Virus record (IMG/VR): IMGVR_UViG_3300046103_000373
Coordinates: 1 to 25,766 of that record
Source: a virus
Taxonomy: Duplodnaviria > Caudoviricetes
DNA length: 25,766 nt
Reading direction: 5' to 3' (one strand)
Numbering within the stretch: position 1 is the stretch's first letter; every line of letters begins with the position of its first letter. Positions 4,946-13,658 of this stretch are shown one piece after another. The notes beneath the pieces were generated by a model. That model saw only the letters and a program-made list of their open reading frames with translations, made no database searches and was not told the origin of the DNA. The translations under genes and the position numbers were made by a program.

Positions 4946-5380
4946 TTATAATTGATTTAAAAATTGTTTTAATGATTTATAATCTTCTACTGTGTTTTGT
5001 ATTACTACATCTCTCTTATCTTTCGCATAAGCTGCCATATTCTCTTTATAACAAACCTGTAATAGTATGGAGTCATTTGTTGTAAAAGATCCTTTAGGGG
5101 TCATTTGTGGAGTTATAGAGCGTATGTTACTAACTACTTGAATTGGTTGTTCCAAACCCTTTGCTCCTTTTGCAAATTTATACTGTTCGTTTGATACCTC
5201 AAACTGTATTTCTGTTCCTACTGAAAATTTAAATTCCCCTACAGCAGAAAAAGTGTACTCAGTACCGTCAGCAAATCCTACTAAATGTTTATCAAGTTGA
5301 ATCTCTTCTTTTTTTACCTGATCGAAAAAGGGTTTACCTTTGCCTTTTGGTGTTATAAATGTAATTTTACCTGTTTTCAT
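4946..5380 (-). CDS. hypothetical replication/recombination protein, possible OB fold
   Basis: 144 aa; beta-rich aromatic N-terminal half, linker and helical C-terminus; adjacent to SSB and helicase. Confidence 0.6.
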   Translation of the reverse strand: MKTGKITFITPKGKGKPFFDQVKKEEIQLDKHLVGFADGTEYTFSAVGEFKFSVGTEIQFEVSNEQYKFAKGAKGLEQPIQVVSNIRSITPQMTPKGSFTTNDSILLQVCYKENMAAYAKDKRDVVIQNTVEDYKSLKQFLNQL

Positions 5381-5489
5381 ACTCTGTCTTTGTTTTTGTT
5401 TCTAATTTGATTTCCAGATCTAAAACCTTAGTCCTTAAGAATTCTACTTCTGTTTTAAGTAATCGAATAAGATCATCGTTATAAGTCAT
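5367..5489 (-). CDS. small coiled-coil protein (not in ORF track)
   Basis: Hand translation: MTYNDDLIRLLKTEVEFLRTKVLDLEIKLETKTKTEYENR (40 aa); heptad leucines; overlaps both neighbours. Confidence 0.65.
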   Translation of the reverse strand: MTYNDDLIRLLKTEVEFLRTKVLDLEIKLETKTKTEYENR

Positions 5490-5622
5490 TTTTTGAAAAT
5501 TTAATTTCTACACGTTTAGAAAGTTCAGCCTTTGCGGCATTCCTAGTTCCGTCTAACAATTCCTTGTTGTTTATTAATTCAGCAAGATCGTCATTAGTTA
5601 AAAAGTCTACTAGTGCTATCAT
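5479..5622 (-). CDS. small hypothetical protein (not in ORF track)
   Basis: Hand translation: MIALVDFLTNDDLAELINNKELLDGTRNAAKAELSKRVEIKFSKNDL (47 aa); first gene after the 5640-5670 promoter, with an A-rich leader. Confidence 0.7.
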   Translation of the reverse strand: MIALVDFLTNDDLAELINNKELLDGTRNAAKAELSKRVEIKFSKNDL

Positions 5623-5639
5623 ATTAATTGTTGTTTTTA

Positions 5640-5670
5640 TAAAGATACTAATAATTTTTAATAAAACAAA
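5640..5670 (-). promoter_or_regulatory. candidate Bacteroidota sigma70 promoter
   Basis: TTTG (5670-5667), 19 nt, TATCTTTA (5647-5640). Confidence 0.7.
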
Positions 5671-5697
5671 AAAGGGATCCTAATTTAATAAGACCCC
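5668..5697 (-). terminator. intrinsic terminator after ninG
   Basis: GGGGTCTT-ATTAAATT-AGGATCCC stem-loop (two G-U pairs) followed by TTTTTT. Confidence 0.8.
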
Positions 5698-5737
5698 TTT
5701 TCAAACAAAGTAAAAAACAATTACACTTACAAAGAAT

Positions 5738-6133
5738 TCAAATGTAGTTTAAATCTAAATCATTTACAAGTTTATTATAATAACTTATTTTTTCTTCAAG
5801 ATCTGAATCTGTAAACTTAACAGTTTGTTTGCTTAATTGAAGTAATTTATTACTGGTCCTTTTACCTAAGAATATACTAAATTCAAATTGCTTTCCCTGC
5901 TGCATAACATTACAGCCGAAACATTGAGGATAAACATTCTTTTCATCCCATCTTGTTGAATAGTGTTTTCTACTCATAAAATGCCCTGCTTGAATTGATT
6001 TAAAATGATAATCTCTGCCACAAGTAACACAAGTACAATATCCTGAATGATCAGCATTTTTCAATCTAATGTATCTGCTAAAAATTGTGTCTAATTTCTT
6101 AACTATTTTAGAACGTGATAATTTTTTTGCCAT
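5738..6133 (-). CDS. ninG: NinG/Rap-family recombination endonuclease
   Basis: KKLDTIFSRYIRLK, CVTC, QAGHFMSR, RWDEKNVYPQCFGCN: the lambda NinG-type zinc/HNH-like pattern. Confidence 0.88.
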   Translation of the reverse strand: MAKKLSRSKIVKKLDTIFSRYIRLKNADHSGYCTCVTCGRDYHFKSIQAGHFMSRKHYSTRWDEKNVYPQCFGCNVMQQGKQFEFSIFLGKRTSNKLLQLSKQTVKFTDSDLEEKISYYNKLVNDLDLNYI

Positions 6134-6167
6134 TTAATTTGGATAGAATAAAAAAAAGGTTTTATTA

Positions 6168-6202
6168 TACTATAGTAATACTATACTACTATAGTAATAC
6201 TA
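6168..6202. repeat. two 16-bp direct repeats, each containing a perfect 10-bp palindrome
   Basis: TACTATAGTAATACTA at 6168-6183 and 6187-6202; TACTATAGTA is self-complementary. Confidence 0.85.
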
Positions 6203-6219
6203 ATACTTATGTAATAAAG

Positions 6220-6459
6220 CTAGTCTAAAGCCTTTAATAACATAGTACCAATTTCATCATCAACGGTTTTTAGTTGTTTATATATAAACTTACTGTCTGA
6301 CTTTACTTTAGTAATTTCTGATTTAGTACTATCAATTCCTAATTTAGTATATTGATCACAATCAATCCTAAGTAATTCATCAGTCCTTTCTTTAATGCTT
6401 AAAGCAAAATCTTGTGCTATTTTTTCTGCTAAGTCTCTAATAGTACTTTTGTCTGTCAT
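6220..6459 (-). CDS. hypothetical protein
   Basis: 79-aa helical ORF between the holin and ninG, preceded by TACTTTTA (6487-6480). Confidence 0.7.
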   Translation of the reverse strand: MTDKSTIRDLAEKIAQDFALSIKERTDELLRIDCDQYTKLGIDSTKSEITKVKSDSKFIYKQLKTVDDEIGTMLLKALD

Positions 6460-6506
6460 TCTTCTAATTTAATTAATAATAAAAGTAATGAAAAAAAATT
6501 AAACGA

Positions 6507-6920
6507 TTACTGGTGTTTATTGTTACCGAATACCTTTTCTACTCCTCTAGATCCAAAGTATCCACCAATTACAATACTAAGCAGCCCAGTAATTGAGTCT
6601 AAAGGATAACCCATATACCAACCGATTACATAACTTACGGTCAAGAATACCAATGTCAAAGGTCTTACGTTAGAAGATAGCCAAGAACCGCTTCTAGAAT
6701 CAGCTACCCATCTACGAGTAGTACCATCTATTTCCGCACGTTCTATGTCAAGTTTTTTTAAAGCTATTTGTTTGTCGGAATCACTCATATCTGAGCCACC
6801 TATAATAGCCTGTATTACTGATCCTACTGGAGTATTTCCTGCAATAGCACCAACTACATCAGGTATCTTATTTAAAAGAAATTTACCTACTTGTGTATCT
6901 TTGAATTTTTTCTTATCCAT
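6507..6920 (-). CDS. holin (GTA-type 3TM holin-like)
   Basis: RWVADSRSGSWLSSNVRPLTLVFL...GGYFGSRGVEK pattern with hydrophobic helices; directly downstream of the endolysin. Confidence 0.8.
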   Translation of the reverse strand: MDKKKFKDTQVGKFLLNKIPDVVGAIAGNTPVGSVIQAIIGGSDMSDSDKQIALKKLDIERAEIDGTTRRWVADSRSGSWLSSNVRPLTLVFLTVSYVIGWYMGYPLDSITGLLSIVIGGYFGSRGVEKVFGNNKHQ

Positions 6921-6938
6921 AGTGTGTTTCCTACGGTG

Positions 6939-7289
6939 CTAGTATGTCCAGACTGAATTTGGTTTACTTTCGTCATTGTCGCAATGGATAAAAGTTTTTG
7001 CAACTCCCAACCTACGGAATCCTGCTTTGATAAGGGCATTAAGAATAATGTATCTTTCTGAACCATTTCCAATGGCAATGTCTGAAGCTTTTCCGACAAG
7101 GTGACTTGAGTTGGAAACACCTCCCACCAATTCATTTCTTTCTTTTGTTCTGTAGCCAGAGGTAATTTTAAAGGGTATCCCTGCAATACCACGTGCGTCA
7201 TCGAGCATCTGCAAAAAACTATGATCCATATTAATGCCAGAGTTCTGGAGATCAGGCGAGTCAAATTCATACGATTCAAAATGTAACAT
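6939..7289 (-). CDS. endolysin, peptidase M15 family
   Basis: ITSGYRT..RN..VGG...SSHLVGKASDI...FIHCD: the H-x6-D...H zinc ligands of M15 peptidases. Confidence 0.9.
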   Translation of the reverse strand: MLHFESYEFDSPDLQNSGINMDHSFLQMLDDARGIAGIPFKITSGYRTKERNELVGGVSNSSHLVGKASDIAIGNGSERYIILNALIKAGFRRLGVAKTFIHCDNDESKPNSVWTY

Positions 7290-7291
7290 AT

Positions 7292-7369
7292 TTATTTAAG
7301 ATGAGTTCCGTCACAATATCCGTTAGCATTTGTTGTGTTTCCACATTGACAAATTTTAGGCTCTTTCAT
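7292..7369 (-). CDS. 25-aa CDGSH-type iron-sulfur motif micropeptide (not in ORF track)
   Basis: Hand translation: MKEPKICQCGNTTNANGYCDGTHLK. ATGA overlap upstream; ends 2 nt before the endolysin ATG; motif C-x-C-x2-T-x6-CDGTH. Confidence 0.75.
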   Translation of the reverse strand: MKEPKICQCGNTTNANGYCDGTHLK

Positions 7370-7536
7370 TTTTTGTTATTTGAAATTTTCTTTTTAATTT
7401 TTTTTCTTAGTTCTTCTACATTATCTTCAATAACATCAGGAATTCCATCTTTATCTTTGTCTTTAAAAACACCGTTGTAAGTTAACACAACTAATCCTGC
7501 TGATATTAACACTAATATACCAATTATTTTTATCAT
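7366..7536 (-). CDS. small membrane-anchored protein with DxDxDG motif (not in ORF track)
   Basis: Hand translation: MIKIIGILVLISAGLVVLTYNGVFKDKDKDGIPDVIEDNVEELRKKIKKKISNNKK (56 aa). Confidence 0.75.
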   Translation of the reverse strand: MIKIIGILVLISAGLVVLTYNGVFKDKDKDGIPDVIEDNVEELRKKIKKKISNNKK

Positions 7537-7539
7537 AAT

Positions 7540-7935
7540 TTATTTATTTTTTTTATCGTCAAAGTCCATTGCTTGTTTCAATATAAATTTATCAAACATA
7601 TCATCCTGATTTTTTAACATATCCTTTTGTAGTTTAATAATCATTGCTTCGTATTCGTCTTTGCTTTTAGTAAGAGATTCAATCGTTTGTTCTTTACTAT
7701 CTAGTTTGCTTTTAAGAGCATTTATATCGTCTGGTTTTGATCCTGTAATTGTTGATATAACCATAGCTAAAGAAGCAGAGAGAGTACCTACCAACATCAT
7801 TACAACTTCTTTGTTCGAGTCTAGTACAGGGTATTGAATAAACACTACTACTAATGCAACAATAAAAAAGAAGATTAATAATGCTCCGCTATATGAACGG
7901 ATCTCTTTTGCTACACCGTTTTTTGGTAAATTCAT
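7540..7935 (-). CDS. two-TM membrane protein with C-terminal coiled coil (lysis-associated)
   Basis: Hydrophobic helices ALLIFFFIVALVVVFIQY and VVMMLVGTLSASLAMVISTI, then a heptad region. Confidence 0.7.
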   Translation of the reverse strand: MNLPKNGVAKEIRSYSGALLIFFFIVALVVVFIQYPVLDSNKEVVMMLVGTLSASLAMVISTITGSKPDDINALKSKLDSKEQTIESLTKSKDEYEAMIIKLQKDMLKNQDDMFDKFILKQAMDFDDKKNK

Positions 7936-8075
7936 TTCTTAATTTTCTTATAGATTGATATTATTGTAAATACTATTGCAAGGCTTAAACTTATCGTTTG
8001 AAGTATAGGATTTGCTTTGCTTATTGATAAAGCCAAAGCTGAAACATTAATAAGTCCTATTTTCAAATCTTCCAT
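7932..8075 (-). CDS. small hydrophobic holin-like protein (not in ORF track)
   Basis: Hand translation: MEDLKIGLINVSALALSISKANPILQTISLSLAIVFTIISIYKKIKK (47 aa); two hydrophobic segments, basic tail, ATGA overlap downstream. Confidence 0.75.
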   Translation of the reverse strand: MEDLKIGLINVSALALSISKANPILQTISLSLAIVFTIISIYKKIKK

Positions 8076-8078
8076 TAT

Positions 8079-8945
8079 TTACAATGTAAAATCGTGAATT
8101 TGTTTAGATTCTGTCATACAAACATAAAGGTGCGATGCGTCTAAATTAAGTTGTACACACCTCATAGTGCCATTAGTACTTATAACAGAGGACAAATCTT
8201 TTTTTAAGAAGTTTGATCTTGTACTTGGATCATAAGCAGTTGATAAATCATATTGACCCATAATTCTATTATCGCCAAAGACATACATTCTAGTTCCGTT
8301 TAAATTAAATCCTATACCACGACAAGAAGCCCCCATATCAGTCACAATTCCACCACTTGAATAGGTAGTACCACAGCCAGTTCCCTGAGATGAAAAATCA
8401 TTAGGAGTATTTAAGGTGTATCTTCTAATATTATAAGTTGATGTTATAAATAATTTAGTTCCATCGTGGGAAACACATTGAGAAGCTGAAACTCTGTCAC
8501 CGCCTCCCCTTGAGCAAGAGCCTGTACCTAAAGTACCAAGTGTTGAAAGGTCTCCTGCGGTTCCAAAAGGTCTTCTGTAATAGTTATTCGTTGAATAAGG
8601 GTCAAAACTAATCCAACTATTATCATTGCTTGTGCAAAGTCCAGTCAGATAATCTGGAATTGAAGCTTGTGTCTCTTGAAATGTTTTTTGTACGGTTGTT
8701 ATAGTTGAAACATCAAAGGCAGTTCCGAAATTATATTGATTAAACCAATTTTGTCCACTACTTTTGTGTGAAGTGAATATTCTAGTACCATCTACCGACA
8801 TAAATATTCCACGAGGGTTTCCTTGACTACCTGCCGTAATTGTTTTTGTGGCACTTAAAGACATATTTGTAATGTCTCCAGATGATCCACTAGGAGAAGA
8901 AGCTACAATTCCTGCGGTAGTAAAAAACTTTTTATTAAAACCCAT
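8079..8945 (-). CDS. virion appendage/receptor-binding protein, probable beta-propeller
   Basis: Repeated blades: DGTRIF..QYNFGTAFDVST, DGTKLF..RYTLNTPNDFSS, NGTRMY..QYDLSTAYDPST; Ser/Thr/Gly-rich. Confidence 0.65.
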   Translation of the reverse strand: MGFNKKFFTTAGIVASSPSGSSGDITNMSLSATKTITAGSQGNPRGIFMSVDGTRIFTSHKSSGQNWFNQYNFGTAFDVSTITTVQKTFQETQASIPDYLTGLCTSNDNSWISFDPYSTNNYYRRPFGTAGDLSTLGTLGTGSCSRGGGDRVSASQCVSHDGTKLFITSTYNIRRYTLNTPNDFSSQGTGCGTTYSSGGIVTDMGASCRGIGFNLNGTRMYVFGDNRIMGQYDLSTAYDPSTRSNFLKKDLSSVISTNGTMRCVQLNLDASHLYVCMTESKQIHDFTL

Positions 8946-9413
8946 TTAGTTTAAATTTGGTAAAGAATAAGATGCAATTGATGCCTTTGTAGTAAGTGCA
9001 GAAATTTCTCCTTCTTTTGTTGCACATTCGGTTCTTAATCCAGACCTAGAATCTATAATGCTTTGAGGTGCATCCGTACCTTCTTGGGCTCTTATAATGT
9101 ACCAGTCTGTTTGAACTAGTTTTCTGTTGTAGATATTTTTAAGTTCTTCAATTTTTTCTGCTTTTAATTCCGCTACCGTTTCACTCCAAGTCTTATTCAC
9201 AACAGAGTATGTGAAAACCTTTGCACTATTATTCCAAATTAAATTCGTTGTGTTTTGAGTTGCTGAATTATACTCAGGTATTACAACATCATAAAATCCT
9301 GCTGCTTGATGTTCTGCGGTTGACATTAAATGGAATCCTCCAATTACATTATTCCAAGACTTAGGAATTGTTCCGTATTGTTTTATTTTATTTCCTATTT
9401 TTATTGCTTTCAT
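8946..9413 (-). CDS. tail fibre assembly chaperone-like protein
   Basis: ELKAEKIEELK...LVQTDWYIIRAQE...R..LR pattern of Tfa-like proteins; lies between two fibre genes. Confidence 0.6.
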   Translation of the reverse strand: MKAIKIGNKIKQYGTIPKSWNNVIGGFHLMSTAEHQAAGFYDVVIPEYNSATQNTTNLIWNNSAKVFTYSVVNKTWSETVAELKAEKIEELKNIYNRKLVQTDWYIIRAQEGTDAPQSIIDSRSGLRTECATKEGEISALTTKASIASYSLPNLN

Positions 9414-9416
9414 AAT

Positions 9417-10403
9417 TTATGGTGTTGTATCAACTGCAAACGTTGCAATTGCGTAAGTTAAAATAGCTGCGTTGTCCGTGTCATCTACACAAAGAACTTG
9501 AATAATATTTTTTGCAGATTGATCTAATTCCGTTGTTCCTACTTTATTAATTGCAGAAGTTGAAAAATCATCTGCTAAAGTAATCACAGCACTACTATTT
9601 GTTCCGCTTAAAAGAATATCAATAACTTGTCCCTTTTTTATGTTTTGTATATTAAAAGTAGCTGTTGCAACATTACCTGTGAAATTAAAAGCAGCATAAG
9701 TTTGAGCAGCTAAGTTTATAGTTCCACTAGTCGTTGTGATCGTTTGTAAAGCAGTATACCTACCTTCCAATTTATCGTGAGTAACATTGTCATCTAAGAT
9801 ATTACTGGTAACTACTTTTCCAGTTCCTATTGTTAAAAGACCATCGCCTGTTACGTCTCCTGTATGGGTTGCGTTTGTTAATTTAGCTGTGTTAGCAGTA
9901 ATTGCTGAGTTAATTGCGTTAGCCAATTTATCAGTTGTAACTGCATCGTCTGCTATTTTAGCAGTTGTTACATTTGAATTTAAGATTTTATCCGTAATAA
10001 CTTTATCCGCTCCTATTGAAACTACTCCTGCATTTGTCATTGTAGCATCACCACTTAAAGCTGCAGCAGTCATTCCAGTTCCATCACCTATAAGTATTTG
10101 TGTAGTTGCTAATGCTTTTTCAGTCAATACTCCACTACTGTTAGCATCACGGACTAAAAGTGAATTAGCTGCTACATTTTGCACTTTAGCAAGTGTTACT
10201 CCTGCGTTAGCTAAAGATATTGTAACTGCTCCTGTTGCTGAATCTCTTACAATAGGTGCGGTTGCTGTTATTGAATTAACATCTCCTGCATCATCTGTGT
10301 ACAACTCCGTAAAGTTGTCATTTACCATATCAAAGGCTTCTCGCAGAGGTGTTCCTGTACCATCATTTGCTGTCGTGCCTAAATTAATTGTCTGTTTTGC
10401 CAT
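9417..10403 (-). CDS. tail/collar fibre protein
   Basis: N-terminus KQTINLGTTANDGTGTPLREAFDMVNDNFTELY (T4 gp9/gp10-like attachment motif) and repeats VTLAKV, VITDKI, VTTAKI, VTTDKL, VTHDKL. Confidence 0.8.
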   Translation of the reverse strand: MAKQTINLGTTANDGTGTPLREAFDMVNDNFTELYTDDAGDVNSITATAPIVRDSATGAVTISLANAGVTLAKVQNVAANSLLVRDANSSGVLTEKALATTQILIGDGTGMTAAALSGDATMTNAGVVSIGADKVITDKILNSNVTTAKIADDAVTTDKLANAINSAITANTAKLTNATHTGDVTGDGLLTIGTGKVVTSNILDDNVTHDKLEGRYTALQTITTTSGTINLAAQTYAAFNFTGNVATATFNIQNIKKGQVIDILLSGTNSSAVITLADDFSTSAINKVGTTELDQSAKNIIQVLCVDDTDNAAILTYAIATFAVDTTP

Positions 10404-10414
10404 TTAGTTATATA

Positions 10415-10594
10415 TTAAAAATTTGTTTTATCTGCGGTATATTTTGTGTTGTCTGCCGAAACCAACGTAGTGTCTGCTCTAAAATTTGAATTATCAGCAT
10501 TAAAAGGATAAATAATTCCCCATCCATTTGCCTCATTCACAGCACCCCACCAACTTATGTCGTAAATATAACCGAAGTCTATATCATTTGCCAT
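10415..10594 (-). CDS. small structural adaptor-like peptide with xAD heptad repeats (not in ORF track)
   Basis: Hand translation: MANDIDFGYIYDISWWGAVNEANGWGIIYPFNADNSNFRADTTLVSADNTKYTADKTNF (59 aa). Confidence 0.75.
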   Translation of the reverse strand: MANDIDFGYIYDISWWGAVNEANGWGIIYPFNADNSNFRADTTLVSADNTKYTADKTNF

Positions 10595-10670
10595 TTTTTT
10601 CTATTTTTTTAATATAGTTTTTTAATTTAACTACATTTTTTTCTTTAGGCTTATATATATTTTTTCTCAA
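10584..10670 (-). CDS. putative 28-aa basic peptide with TTG start (not in ORF track)
   Basis: MRKNIYKPKEKNVVKLKNYIKKIEKNGK; the TTG overlaps the upstream TGA (TTGA) and the ORF fills the gap. Confidence 0.45.
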   Translation of the reverse strand: MRKNIYKPKEKNVVKLKNYIKKIEKNGK

Positions 10671-11176
10671 AGTACCCATCCATTAAATAAACTGTCTTTA
10701 TCAGGATAAACATCTTCATTATTATTTGTGTTGTATTCTGGATAGTCGCTTATATGAAATGTAACGTAATCTATCATTCTTCTTGTATAATATTCTGCAA
10801 ATTCTCTCTCTTTATTTACAAGATAATCAACTTCTGACTTGTCAACACTTTCAGAATTCTCACTTATATGTTTAAAAACCCCACCATTTTTGATCTGATA
10901 AGCTGCGAAAGGTAAATAGTCCACCATTGCATAATGTATCAACATAGGCTGTATATAGGTATTAACCAATAGTAAATATGCTCCTGTAAGTGATGCACCA
11001 CCAGTTCCAATTATATCAGTTGAAATTTTATTGTACAATTCCGAACCCATATAGTTTTTAATATGGATCTCCTGTGCTATTTTAATAAATTGAATAAATT
11101 TATCAGTATCAACGTTTCCATCTAATACTGTATTTTTTACTAAATCTGTTCTCGATATGAATAATGCTGTAGCCAT
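10667..11176 (-). CDS. head-tail connector/adaptor protein
   Basis: 169-aa helical protein immediately downstream of the portal; LDGNVDTDK..IKIAQEIHIKNYMGSELYNKI pattern recalled from Bacteroidota phage adaptors. Confidence 0.65.
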   Translation of the reverse strand: MATALFISRTDLVKNTVLDGNVDTDKFIQFIKIAQEIHIKNYMGSELYNKISTDIIGTGGASLTGAYLLLVNTYIQPMLIHYAMVDYLPFAAYQIKNGGVFKHISENSESVDKSEVDYLVNKEREFAEYYTRRMIDYVTFHISDYPEYNTNNNEDVYPDKDSLFNGWVL

Positions 11177-13271: not shown

Positions 13272-13299
13272 TATAACGAAATTAATAAATAATCTTGTA
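13272..13299 (-). promoter_or_regulatory. candidate phage late promoter (portal operon)
   Basis: TACAAGAT-N12-TCGTTATA, directly after a terminator; same architecture at 16759-16786. Confidence 0.65.
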
Positions 13300-13301
13300 A
13301 A

Positions 13302-13335
13302 AAAAAAGGGTAACATTTCTGCTACCCAATTTAAT
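13302..13335 (-). terminator. intrinsic terminator, copy 1 of a 34-bp direct repeat
   Basis: ATTAAATT-GGGTAGCA-GAAA-TGTTACCC-TTTTTT with a GNRA loop; identical to 13625-13658. Confidence 0.9.
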
Positions 13336-13337
13336 TA

Positions 13338-13538
13338 TTACCTCATTTTAGAATGCTCCTGTTGCCAAGACATTTTTTTCATTAATTTTATATAAGCTTC
13401 TAATATTTCTACTAAAACTTCATTCTCTTTTCCCATTAATTTTCCGTAAACAGAAGTAGAGTCTATACTAGCTAAAAGTTCTTCAACTTTAGCTTTACAG
13501 TTTAAATATTCTTGAATGTGATTATTATTGTAAGTCAT
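13338..13538 (-). CDS. hypothetical protein, moron-like insertion
   Basis: 66-aa helical ORF with its own upstream region, bounded by duplicated terminators inside the structural module. Confidence 0.65.
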   Translation of the reverse strand: MTYNNNHIQEYLNCKAKVEELLASIDSTSVYGKLMGKENEVLVEILEAYIKLMKKMSWQQEHSKMR

Positions 13539-13624
13539 AACATAAATTTAAAAATTAATATCAAAGTCTTTCCTTGATCTAATGTAAAAGTAAAATGTTA
13601 ATGCGAACAATAAGTTCGTATAAT

Positions 13625-13658
13625 AAAAAAGGGTAACATTTCTGCTACCCAATTTAAT
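13625..13658 (-). terminator. intrinsic terminator, copy 2 of a 34-bp direct repeat
   Basis: Identical to 13302-13335; follows the tail tube gene. Confidence 0.9.

Follow-up and report, generated by a model that had tools for sequence, protein, structure and literature searches.

Judging from its pattern of sequence variation, the 25-codon open reading frame (ORF) at positions 7292-7369 (minus strand, 7369-7292) is a real small gene under selection. It lies in the window, the 25,766-base record of an uncultured marine phage analyzed here, which is about 80% complete. The product is a CDGSH-like, motif-only peptide of 25 amino acids (C-x-C-G-x-T-x4-G-Y-C-D-G-T-H), and its link to lysis genes is a gene-neighborhood signal that is real but loose. 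Our preferred interpretation, which we hold with somewhat less than even confidence, is an optional, late [2Fe-2S] redox or iron buffer near the inner membrane, common to aquatic phages and bacteria, and not a core lysis protein.

The lysis cassette and evidence for a selected gene

The only cultured matches of the capsid protein are the Nonlabens phages P12024S/L (33.5% identity), which makes a flavobacterial host likely. On the minus strand, the cassette runs in the order 47-aa peptide, 131-aa hairpin, 56-aa peptide, CDGSH-like peptide, M15 endolysin, and putative holin. The first gene (7932-8075) encodes a hydrophobic peptide. The second (7540-7935) encodes a two-helix membrane hairpin with two hydrophobic segments and a C-terminal coiled-coil-like tail, for which only weak spanin-like PHROG matches were found (E 0.1-0.3). 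The 56-aa peptide (7366-7536) has one N-terminal hydrophobic helix and a DxDxDG motif, which we take to be Ca-binding-like. In 44 of 64 loci, a motif of this type precedes the endolysin, and a similar one starts the 93-112 aa protein found in place of the hairpin in other cassettes (L019, L055, L058, and L067). The label given to the endolysin (6939-7289, 116 aa) in the initial annotation was borne out by the matches to a zinc peptidase family (Pfam Peptidase_M15_3, PF08291, E 5e-14; phrog_894, E 5e-23). The putative holin (6507-6920, 137 aa) matches phrog_3427, "holin", at E 2e-11 and GTA_holin_3TM weakly at E 0.04; none of its segments exceeds the hydropathy cut-off used.

A consensus scan gave a single terminator-like hairpin in 5300-10800, at 5669-5702 on the minus strand. 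It would close the late unit after NinG, a weak assignment given one hit against 1.6 expected in shuffles. The promoter scan returned 26 sites against 25.6 expected. Elsewhere in the window, a 43-nt direct repeat (13293-13335 and 13616-13658; a hairpin and a T run on the minus strand) flanks a 66-aa ORF at 13338-13538. A contig from RNA run X1 skips 323 nt between the repeat copies, and thus the gene for the 66-aa ORF is absent in a population variant.

The translation of the 25-codon ORF was confirmed, and its strand, which had not been given before, is minus. The start codon of the ORF (7369-7367) forms an ATGA overlap with the TGA stop of the gene for the 56-aa membrane peptide, and 2 nt separate the stop of the ORF from the endolysin ATG at 7289, in agreement with the initial annotation. 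The description given there of the four ligands (C7, C9, C19, and H23), the Thr, the additional residue in the loop, and the lack of the canonical Pro is likewise correct. The window peptide has Ile at the first position of the motif, no P motif, and six residues ahead of the first Cys. Scanning with a DNA pattern for the motif gave a single match in the window and none in 100 shuffles.

Relatives were sought in viral loci that encode an endolysin relative, of which the best 80 among 105 were taken. A DNA profile located the peptide gene in 45 of these 80 loci, with 44 copies whole and intact and one cut by a contig end; broken frames, which the initial annotation had named as grounds for doubt, were found in none of the 45. 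Purifying selection, also proposed as a check, is indicated by a dN/dS of 0.178 (28 distinct sequences, 22 codons), with variation of 0.47 at third codon positions against 0.21 and 0.18 at the other two. All four ligand codons vary synonymously among the 28 sequences, and the two shifted frames contain stops in 25 of 28 and 28 of 28. At E<=0.001, a profile search with the peptide family recovered 324 clusters. Counts of conservation based on the DNA pattern are circular wherever the pattern fixes a residue, and we did not take them as proof. Contigs from three of four seawater RNA runs span the ORF, though they reveal nothing about strand or level and may partly derive from DNA; run X9 gave no cover over the ORF.

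A chance ORF would be compatible with a length of only 25 codons and with the absence of the exact peptide sequence from a collection of 15 billion proteins. This possibility is nevertheless refuted by the dN/dS value, the synonymous variation at the ligand codons, and the lack of broken copies; the large number of clusters and the movement of the gene between positions as one unit also argue against it. We therefore consider it extremely improbable.

The gene is optional. Among the 64 cassettes with at least 450 nt upstream of the endolysin, 40 carry it and 24 do not. The proposed position upstream of the endolysin is retained in a looser form: the peptide gene stands directly before the endolysin in 11 of 43 loci, whereas one or more small genes intervene in the other 32. 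It also swaps order with the 56-aa peptide gene among relatives.

The endolysin gene itself appears to hold a further gene. A 127-codon ORF (6887-7270, minus strand) is nested in its +1 frame and runs into the holin start. Over endolysin codons 8-116, this frame is open in 39 of 41 distinct genes, against 0.00 expected from the codon usage of the window, and has a mean of 0.17 stops where 9.43 are expected; control blocks were open in 0 of 40. With the endolysins' own codon usage, about 3.9 stops would still be expected over the gene. In the five codons of the endolysin-holin gap, the differences are 0.07, 0.16, and 0.55 at positions 1, 2, and 3 (31 distinct sequences). Because this third-position variation continues through the gap, the nested frame is very likely coding. 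In other M15 subgroups, the same frame contains 3-15 stops, and 3 of 52 copies of the nested ORF are interrupted.

The nested ORF has no family match. In the part of PMC6139136 available to us, lambda Rz1 is described as an embedded lysis gene in the +1 frame of Rz. The nested ORF is likewise a conserved +1-frame ORF within a lysis gene, and many copies, not all, have an N-terminal hydrophobic stretch followed by Cys. In contrast to Rz1/Rz, the outer gene is an endolysin and not an i-spanin, the start codon is not conserved, and the lipobox is non-consensus and missing in some copies. An o-spanin was defined by the lipobox [LVI][ASTVI][GAS]C together with a partner i-spanin, and no such partner was identified for the nested ORF. 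It is a candidate for an embedded spanin- or holin-like lysis gene.

Relation to CDGSH iron-sulfur domains

The peptide shares its ligand set, three Cys and one His in C-x-C...C-D-G-(S/T/A)-H, with CDGSH iron-sulfur domains (CISDs) of types 1-7 (PF09360; 3tbn, 3tbo, 3tbm, and mitoNEET), and in both a Ser or Thr stands three residues past the second Cys. The proposed check against the zf-CDGSH model had a divided outcome. The model is the only Pfam match of the peptide (E 0.005), but the score of 17.5 bits falls below the gathering cut-off of 29.5. Other motif-only members reach at most 16 bits, 10 of the 17 family members scanned show no zf-CDGSH match even at E 1, and five Polaribacter genomes hold the peptide without any PF09360 match. 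The top three PDB sequence matches are the CISD structures 3tbn, 3tbo, and 3tbm, at a non-significant E of 0.1-0.3. The Atlas lists a zf-CDGSH cluster at 0.82, which is a lead only. Among the profile matches listed, 6 of 146 new proteins are tandem CISDs that combine one variant and one canonical motif, as at locus L225 (61 bits). Because such type 6-like tandem CISDs carry the variant as one half, the homology of the motif-only family to CDGSH is well supported.

The portion of PMC3174974 available to us describes a CISD motif of 17 residues, three of which (the first, Pro11, and residue 12) are packed against a beta-sandwich. All solved CISDs are said there to need the beta-sandwich and the lid-proline motif, with two modules per dimer, and the smallest has 53 aa. 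The motif-only family differs in each of these respects. Nine residues, not eight, separate Cys2 and Cys3. Gly replaces Pro11 in 20 of 20 distinct peptides from endolysin-anchored loci, a set chosen with a pattern that fixes this Gly, and also in 28 of 28 distinct sequences from a looser C-x-C-x9-C-x3-H set. The first residue is usually Lys, being hydrophobic in only 6 of 178 short peptides, and a loose match to the P motif occurs in only 4 of the 178. The whole protein has 21-30 aa, and the 25 aa of the window peptide leave no room for the strands of a sandwich. Therefore, the extra residue, the Gly at Pro11, and the usual Lys at the first position place the family outside CISD types 1-7. The earlier description of the peptide as little more than the cluster-binding loop is apt; the scaffold features of every solved CISD are missing. 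An AlphaFold model of a 32-aa relative (pLDDT 71, pTM 0.28) has no strand of at least 3 residues and no Foldseek or VIA-align match; given the shortness of this chain and the lack of metal, the model is uninformative.

A different Pro, two residues before the canonical position, is present in 17 of the 20 distinct peptides. The window has Ala at this site, and a variant contig from RNA run X3 has Pro. A fourth Cys (C-x-C-G-C-T) occurs in 14 of the 20 (e.g., L015, L024, and most of L014-L064), and it could allow all-Cys ligation or cross-linking. The expected conservation of the Cys and His residues was seen in the copies from endolysin loci, where the ligands are intact, but one ligand is replaced in 9 of the 150 profile matches listed; two more read CDHSH.

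Other assignments fit less well. CCCH zinc fingers have the spacing C-x(7-8)-C-x5-C-x3-H, whereas that of the peptide is C-x-C-x9-C-x3-H, and no CCCH family in Pfam matched at E 10. Two features of core lysis proteins, a PHROG match and a hydrophobic segment, are missing from the peptide. Some relatives (the Opitutales tandem, a 43-aa phage form, and a 30-aa flavobacterial form) carry the JGI/IMG label "CDGSH-type Zn-finger protein", an automatic name only, and no NCBIfam model or PHROG covers the peptide. In the literature searched, we found no description of motif-only CDGSH peptides or phage CDGSH genes, although the tables of a 2022 phage small-gene catalogue may bear on this. The part of PMC5859297 available to us mentions neither viruses nor phages, and the supplements of PMC12856327 contain no CDGSH entry.

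Distribution in phages and bacteria

The strict pattern matched about 440 viral stretches (120 fetched) and about 510 stretches of GTDB genomes (120 fetched), both being estimates from part scans. When motif-scan loci were picked regardless of lysis genes, a holin or endolysin lay within 1.5 kb in 46 of 80 and none in 34. The proximity test used 34 whole contigs covering the neighborhood groups, with long records favored, one mixed group split into three by eye, and phrog_894 and phrog_3427 as markers; the 10 contigs with neither marker were dropped. Of the 24 contigs kept, 20 have a holin or endolysin no more than 2 kb from the peptide, against 2.85 expected under uniform placement. By group, the count is 12 of 15 against 1.87 expected (reached in 0 of 200,000 simulations), where the uniform null takes no account of the tendency of small late genes to cluster, and the name "holin" is the one used by PHROG. 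A first control, in which 0 of 79 canonical loci had a lysis marker, was discarded because the markers came from variant loci.

This proximity recurs in phages of 20-120 kb with different cassettes. The holin is only 3 to 27 nt from the peptide in four contigs. In four phage records of 110-122 kb, 96-100% complete, a holin is no more than 1.5 kb from the peptide, but phrog_894 has no match anywhere. Some groups place the peptide between head genes or among small basic genes. The initial annotation regarded the peptide as wired into the lysis cassette; the enrichment within 2 kb sustains an association, but the gene is optional and in other groups lies elsewhere. A tblastn search, whose sensitivity is low at 25-43 aa, gave one chance match and no cultured phage that carries the peptide or the hairpin.

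Bacterial chromosomes commonly encode this stand-alone peptide as well, next to yceI and genes for flavin/quinone reductases, and the peptide is therefore not a phage invention. An ORF call was obtained for 78 of the 80 bacterial loci whose flanks were complete. Among 54 Bacteroidota loci, 38 have YceI directly upstream of the peptide, 3 have it fused behind the motif, and 9 have an FMN reductase directly downstream; MarR, Crp-like, pirin, and DoxX genes are recurrent neighbors. The motif is fused ahead of the YceI signal-like helix at L218, L241, L263, L292, and L307, and such fusions would leave it on the cytoplasmic side. The Bacillales form has 25-26 aa, with an adjoining nitroreductase in 4 of 12 loci and a position between MarR and azoreductase in 1 of 12. 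In Opitutales, the motif is doubled. The 17-residue core matches Bacteroidota copies as well as it does Bacillota copies (mean 11.3/17 each); it does not separate even these two groups and gives no direction for phage-host transfer.

The motif is also appended to YceI, to the tails of ribosomal S16, and to several phage proteins, and this portability across unrelated proteins suggests an autonomous module. The variant motif lies in the acidic tail of what we take to be a ribosomal S16-like protein (L260:1644-2141 and L293:1-417) and at the C-terminus of a presumably PSP1-like protein (L230:1527-2066). In phages, the motif begins a 108-aa protein of unassigned function beside a GroES-like gene (L094:1483-1806 and seven related loci), with no lysis marker nearby. 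Minimal CDGSH peptides with canonical spacing are also found in viruses, in about 230 stretches, 40 of 95 distinct ones having at most 45 aa. These are often beside or fused to 2OG-Fe(II) oxygenases, and at L327, L336, L328, and other loci, they stand alone or at the N-terminus of such enzymes. Their other neighbors include thymidylate synthase, ribonucleotide reductase, and a ferrochelatase-like gene.

Possible roles of the peptide

We propose that the peptide would hold a labile [2Fe-2S] cluster through its three Cys and one His, because the ligand set is intact and tandem CISDs carry the variant as one half. Binding of such a cluster seems rather probable, and binding of Zn or another metal considerably less so, although a flexible 3Cys-1His peptide could equally take up Zn instead. 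The peptide would function without the beta-sandwich, since the missing residues are those that pack on the sandwich, and many unrelated proteins carry the motif as an appendage. The part of PMC9490426 available to us describes mitoNEET as passing electrons from FMNH2 to oxygen or ubiquinone. The chemistry of the peptide would mirror this transfer from FMNH2 through the cluster to quinone or O2, because its bacterial neighbors are YceI, FMN reductase, azoreductase, nitroreductase, pirin, and DoxX. As with mitoNEET, bacterial copies adjoin an FMN reductase and the polyisoprenoid-binding YceI, and the YceI fusions put the motif before a hydrophobic signal-like helix; this is a gene-neighborhood parallel only, and no such partners were seen beside the phage copy. 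The fit of this chemistry to the flavin reductase and YceI set leads us to read the phage copy as a late redox or iron buffer. Phages would keep the peptide in a late block of small membrane genes, and as virions fill the cell, it would take up or cycle iron and electrons. Any effect on holin triggering would be indirect. Against this reading, FMN reductase adjoins the peptide in only 9 of the 54 Bacteroidota loci, none of the annotated phage neighbors is a flavin or quinone gene, and the lysis-gene enrichment is stronger than a general buffer would need.

In a rival reading, the peptide would be a lysis timer, an idea raised in the initial annotation: its cluster state would report iron or redox conditions, and the peptide would act on the holin or the hairpin to advance or delay lysis. 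Besides the proximity of a holin or endolysin, starts and stops that overlap or nearly abut point to translational coupling. In the clade of the window, the hairpin gene is the steadiest companion of the peptide; 38 of 40 cassettes with the peptide have it, against 6 of 21 lacking the peptide, a co-occurrence that is confounded by relatedness. The same hairpin lies about 600 nt upstream of the peptide in a second phage group (L083, L100, L120, and L142), where the endolysin is 9-10 kb away. T4 RI and RIII antiholins are lysis-inhibition regulators and likewise small accessory proteins, and the peptide could tune lysis time in a similar manner; unlike them, it has no membrane anchor, it has no sequence likeness to them, and holin binding is unsupported. 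Conversely, the gene is missing from over a third of the cassettes, lysis markers within 1.5 kb are lacking at 34 of the 80 loci from the motif scan, and near-identical bacterial peptides stand beside non-lysis genes. The neighbor varies between groups (holin, endolysin, hairpin, or none), so the peptide has no single partner. No PAS- (sensor-) fused hairpin was found among 457 longer candidates, which is weak evidence. A complex prediction of hairpin, peptide, and 2Fe-2S cluster (L052 chains, as alignments) scored 0.00 against a mark of 0.32 and is uninformative either way. Taken together, we consider a lysis timer unlikely, and it ranks behind the redox or iron buffer.

Less likely again is a store or chaperone for Zn, or a binder of another mononuclear metal, for example serving the Zn-dependent M15 endolysin. 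CCCH ligation is common for Zn, ribosomes store Zn, and the motif occurs in ribosomal S16 tails; moreover, both in the window and at 11 of 43 loci, the peptide gene directly adjoins that of the M15 endolysin. The four 110-122 kb records with the peptide beside a holin and no phrog_894 endolysin match argue against a chaperone role for that enzyme. The CDG(S/T)H tail and C-x-C spacing are kept, and the bacterial neighbors are redox genes, not Zn genes. According to the available part of PMC5859297, CDGSH was itself first named a zinc finger and was later shown to bind [2Fe-2S]. Alternatively, the peptide may be a passenger of an insertion hot spot, used independently of the infection stage in a lysis block that merely tolerates small accessory genes. 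The shuffling of cassette gene order, the coming and going of small genes, and the placement of the peptide between head genes or among small basic genes in other groups accord with such a passenger. However, the lysis enrichment recurs in phages of very different size and cassette, and canonical-spacing viral CDGSH peptides had no lysis-class neighbor in the 63 of 121 neighbor clusters scanned. We find the passenger the most doubtful of these three alternatives. An equally doubtful proposal is a naturally free-standing 25-residue [2Fe-2S] switch, not half as long as the smallest solved CISD, on the holin or hairpin in many marine phages, through which host iron would set lysis, in a cassette that hides a second lysis gene in the endolysin.

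The lysis link, now only a gene-neighborhood signal, would, if true, tie ocean iron limitation to the timing of viral killing. If a cluster is bound, the CDGSH loop works without the beta-sandwich used by all solved CISDs, and the peptide would be a natural minimal Fe-S module that is accessible as a synthetic peptide. The roughly 440 viral and 510 bacterial stretches indicate a common marine small-protein family that has been missed by gene callers and by the Pfam cut-off.
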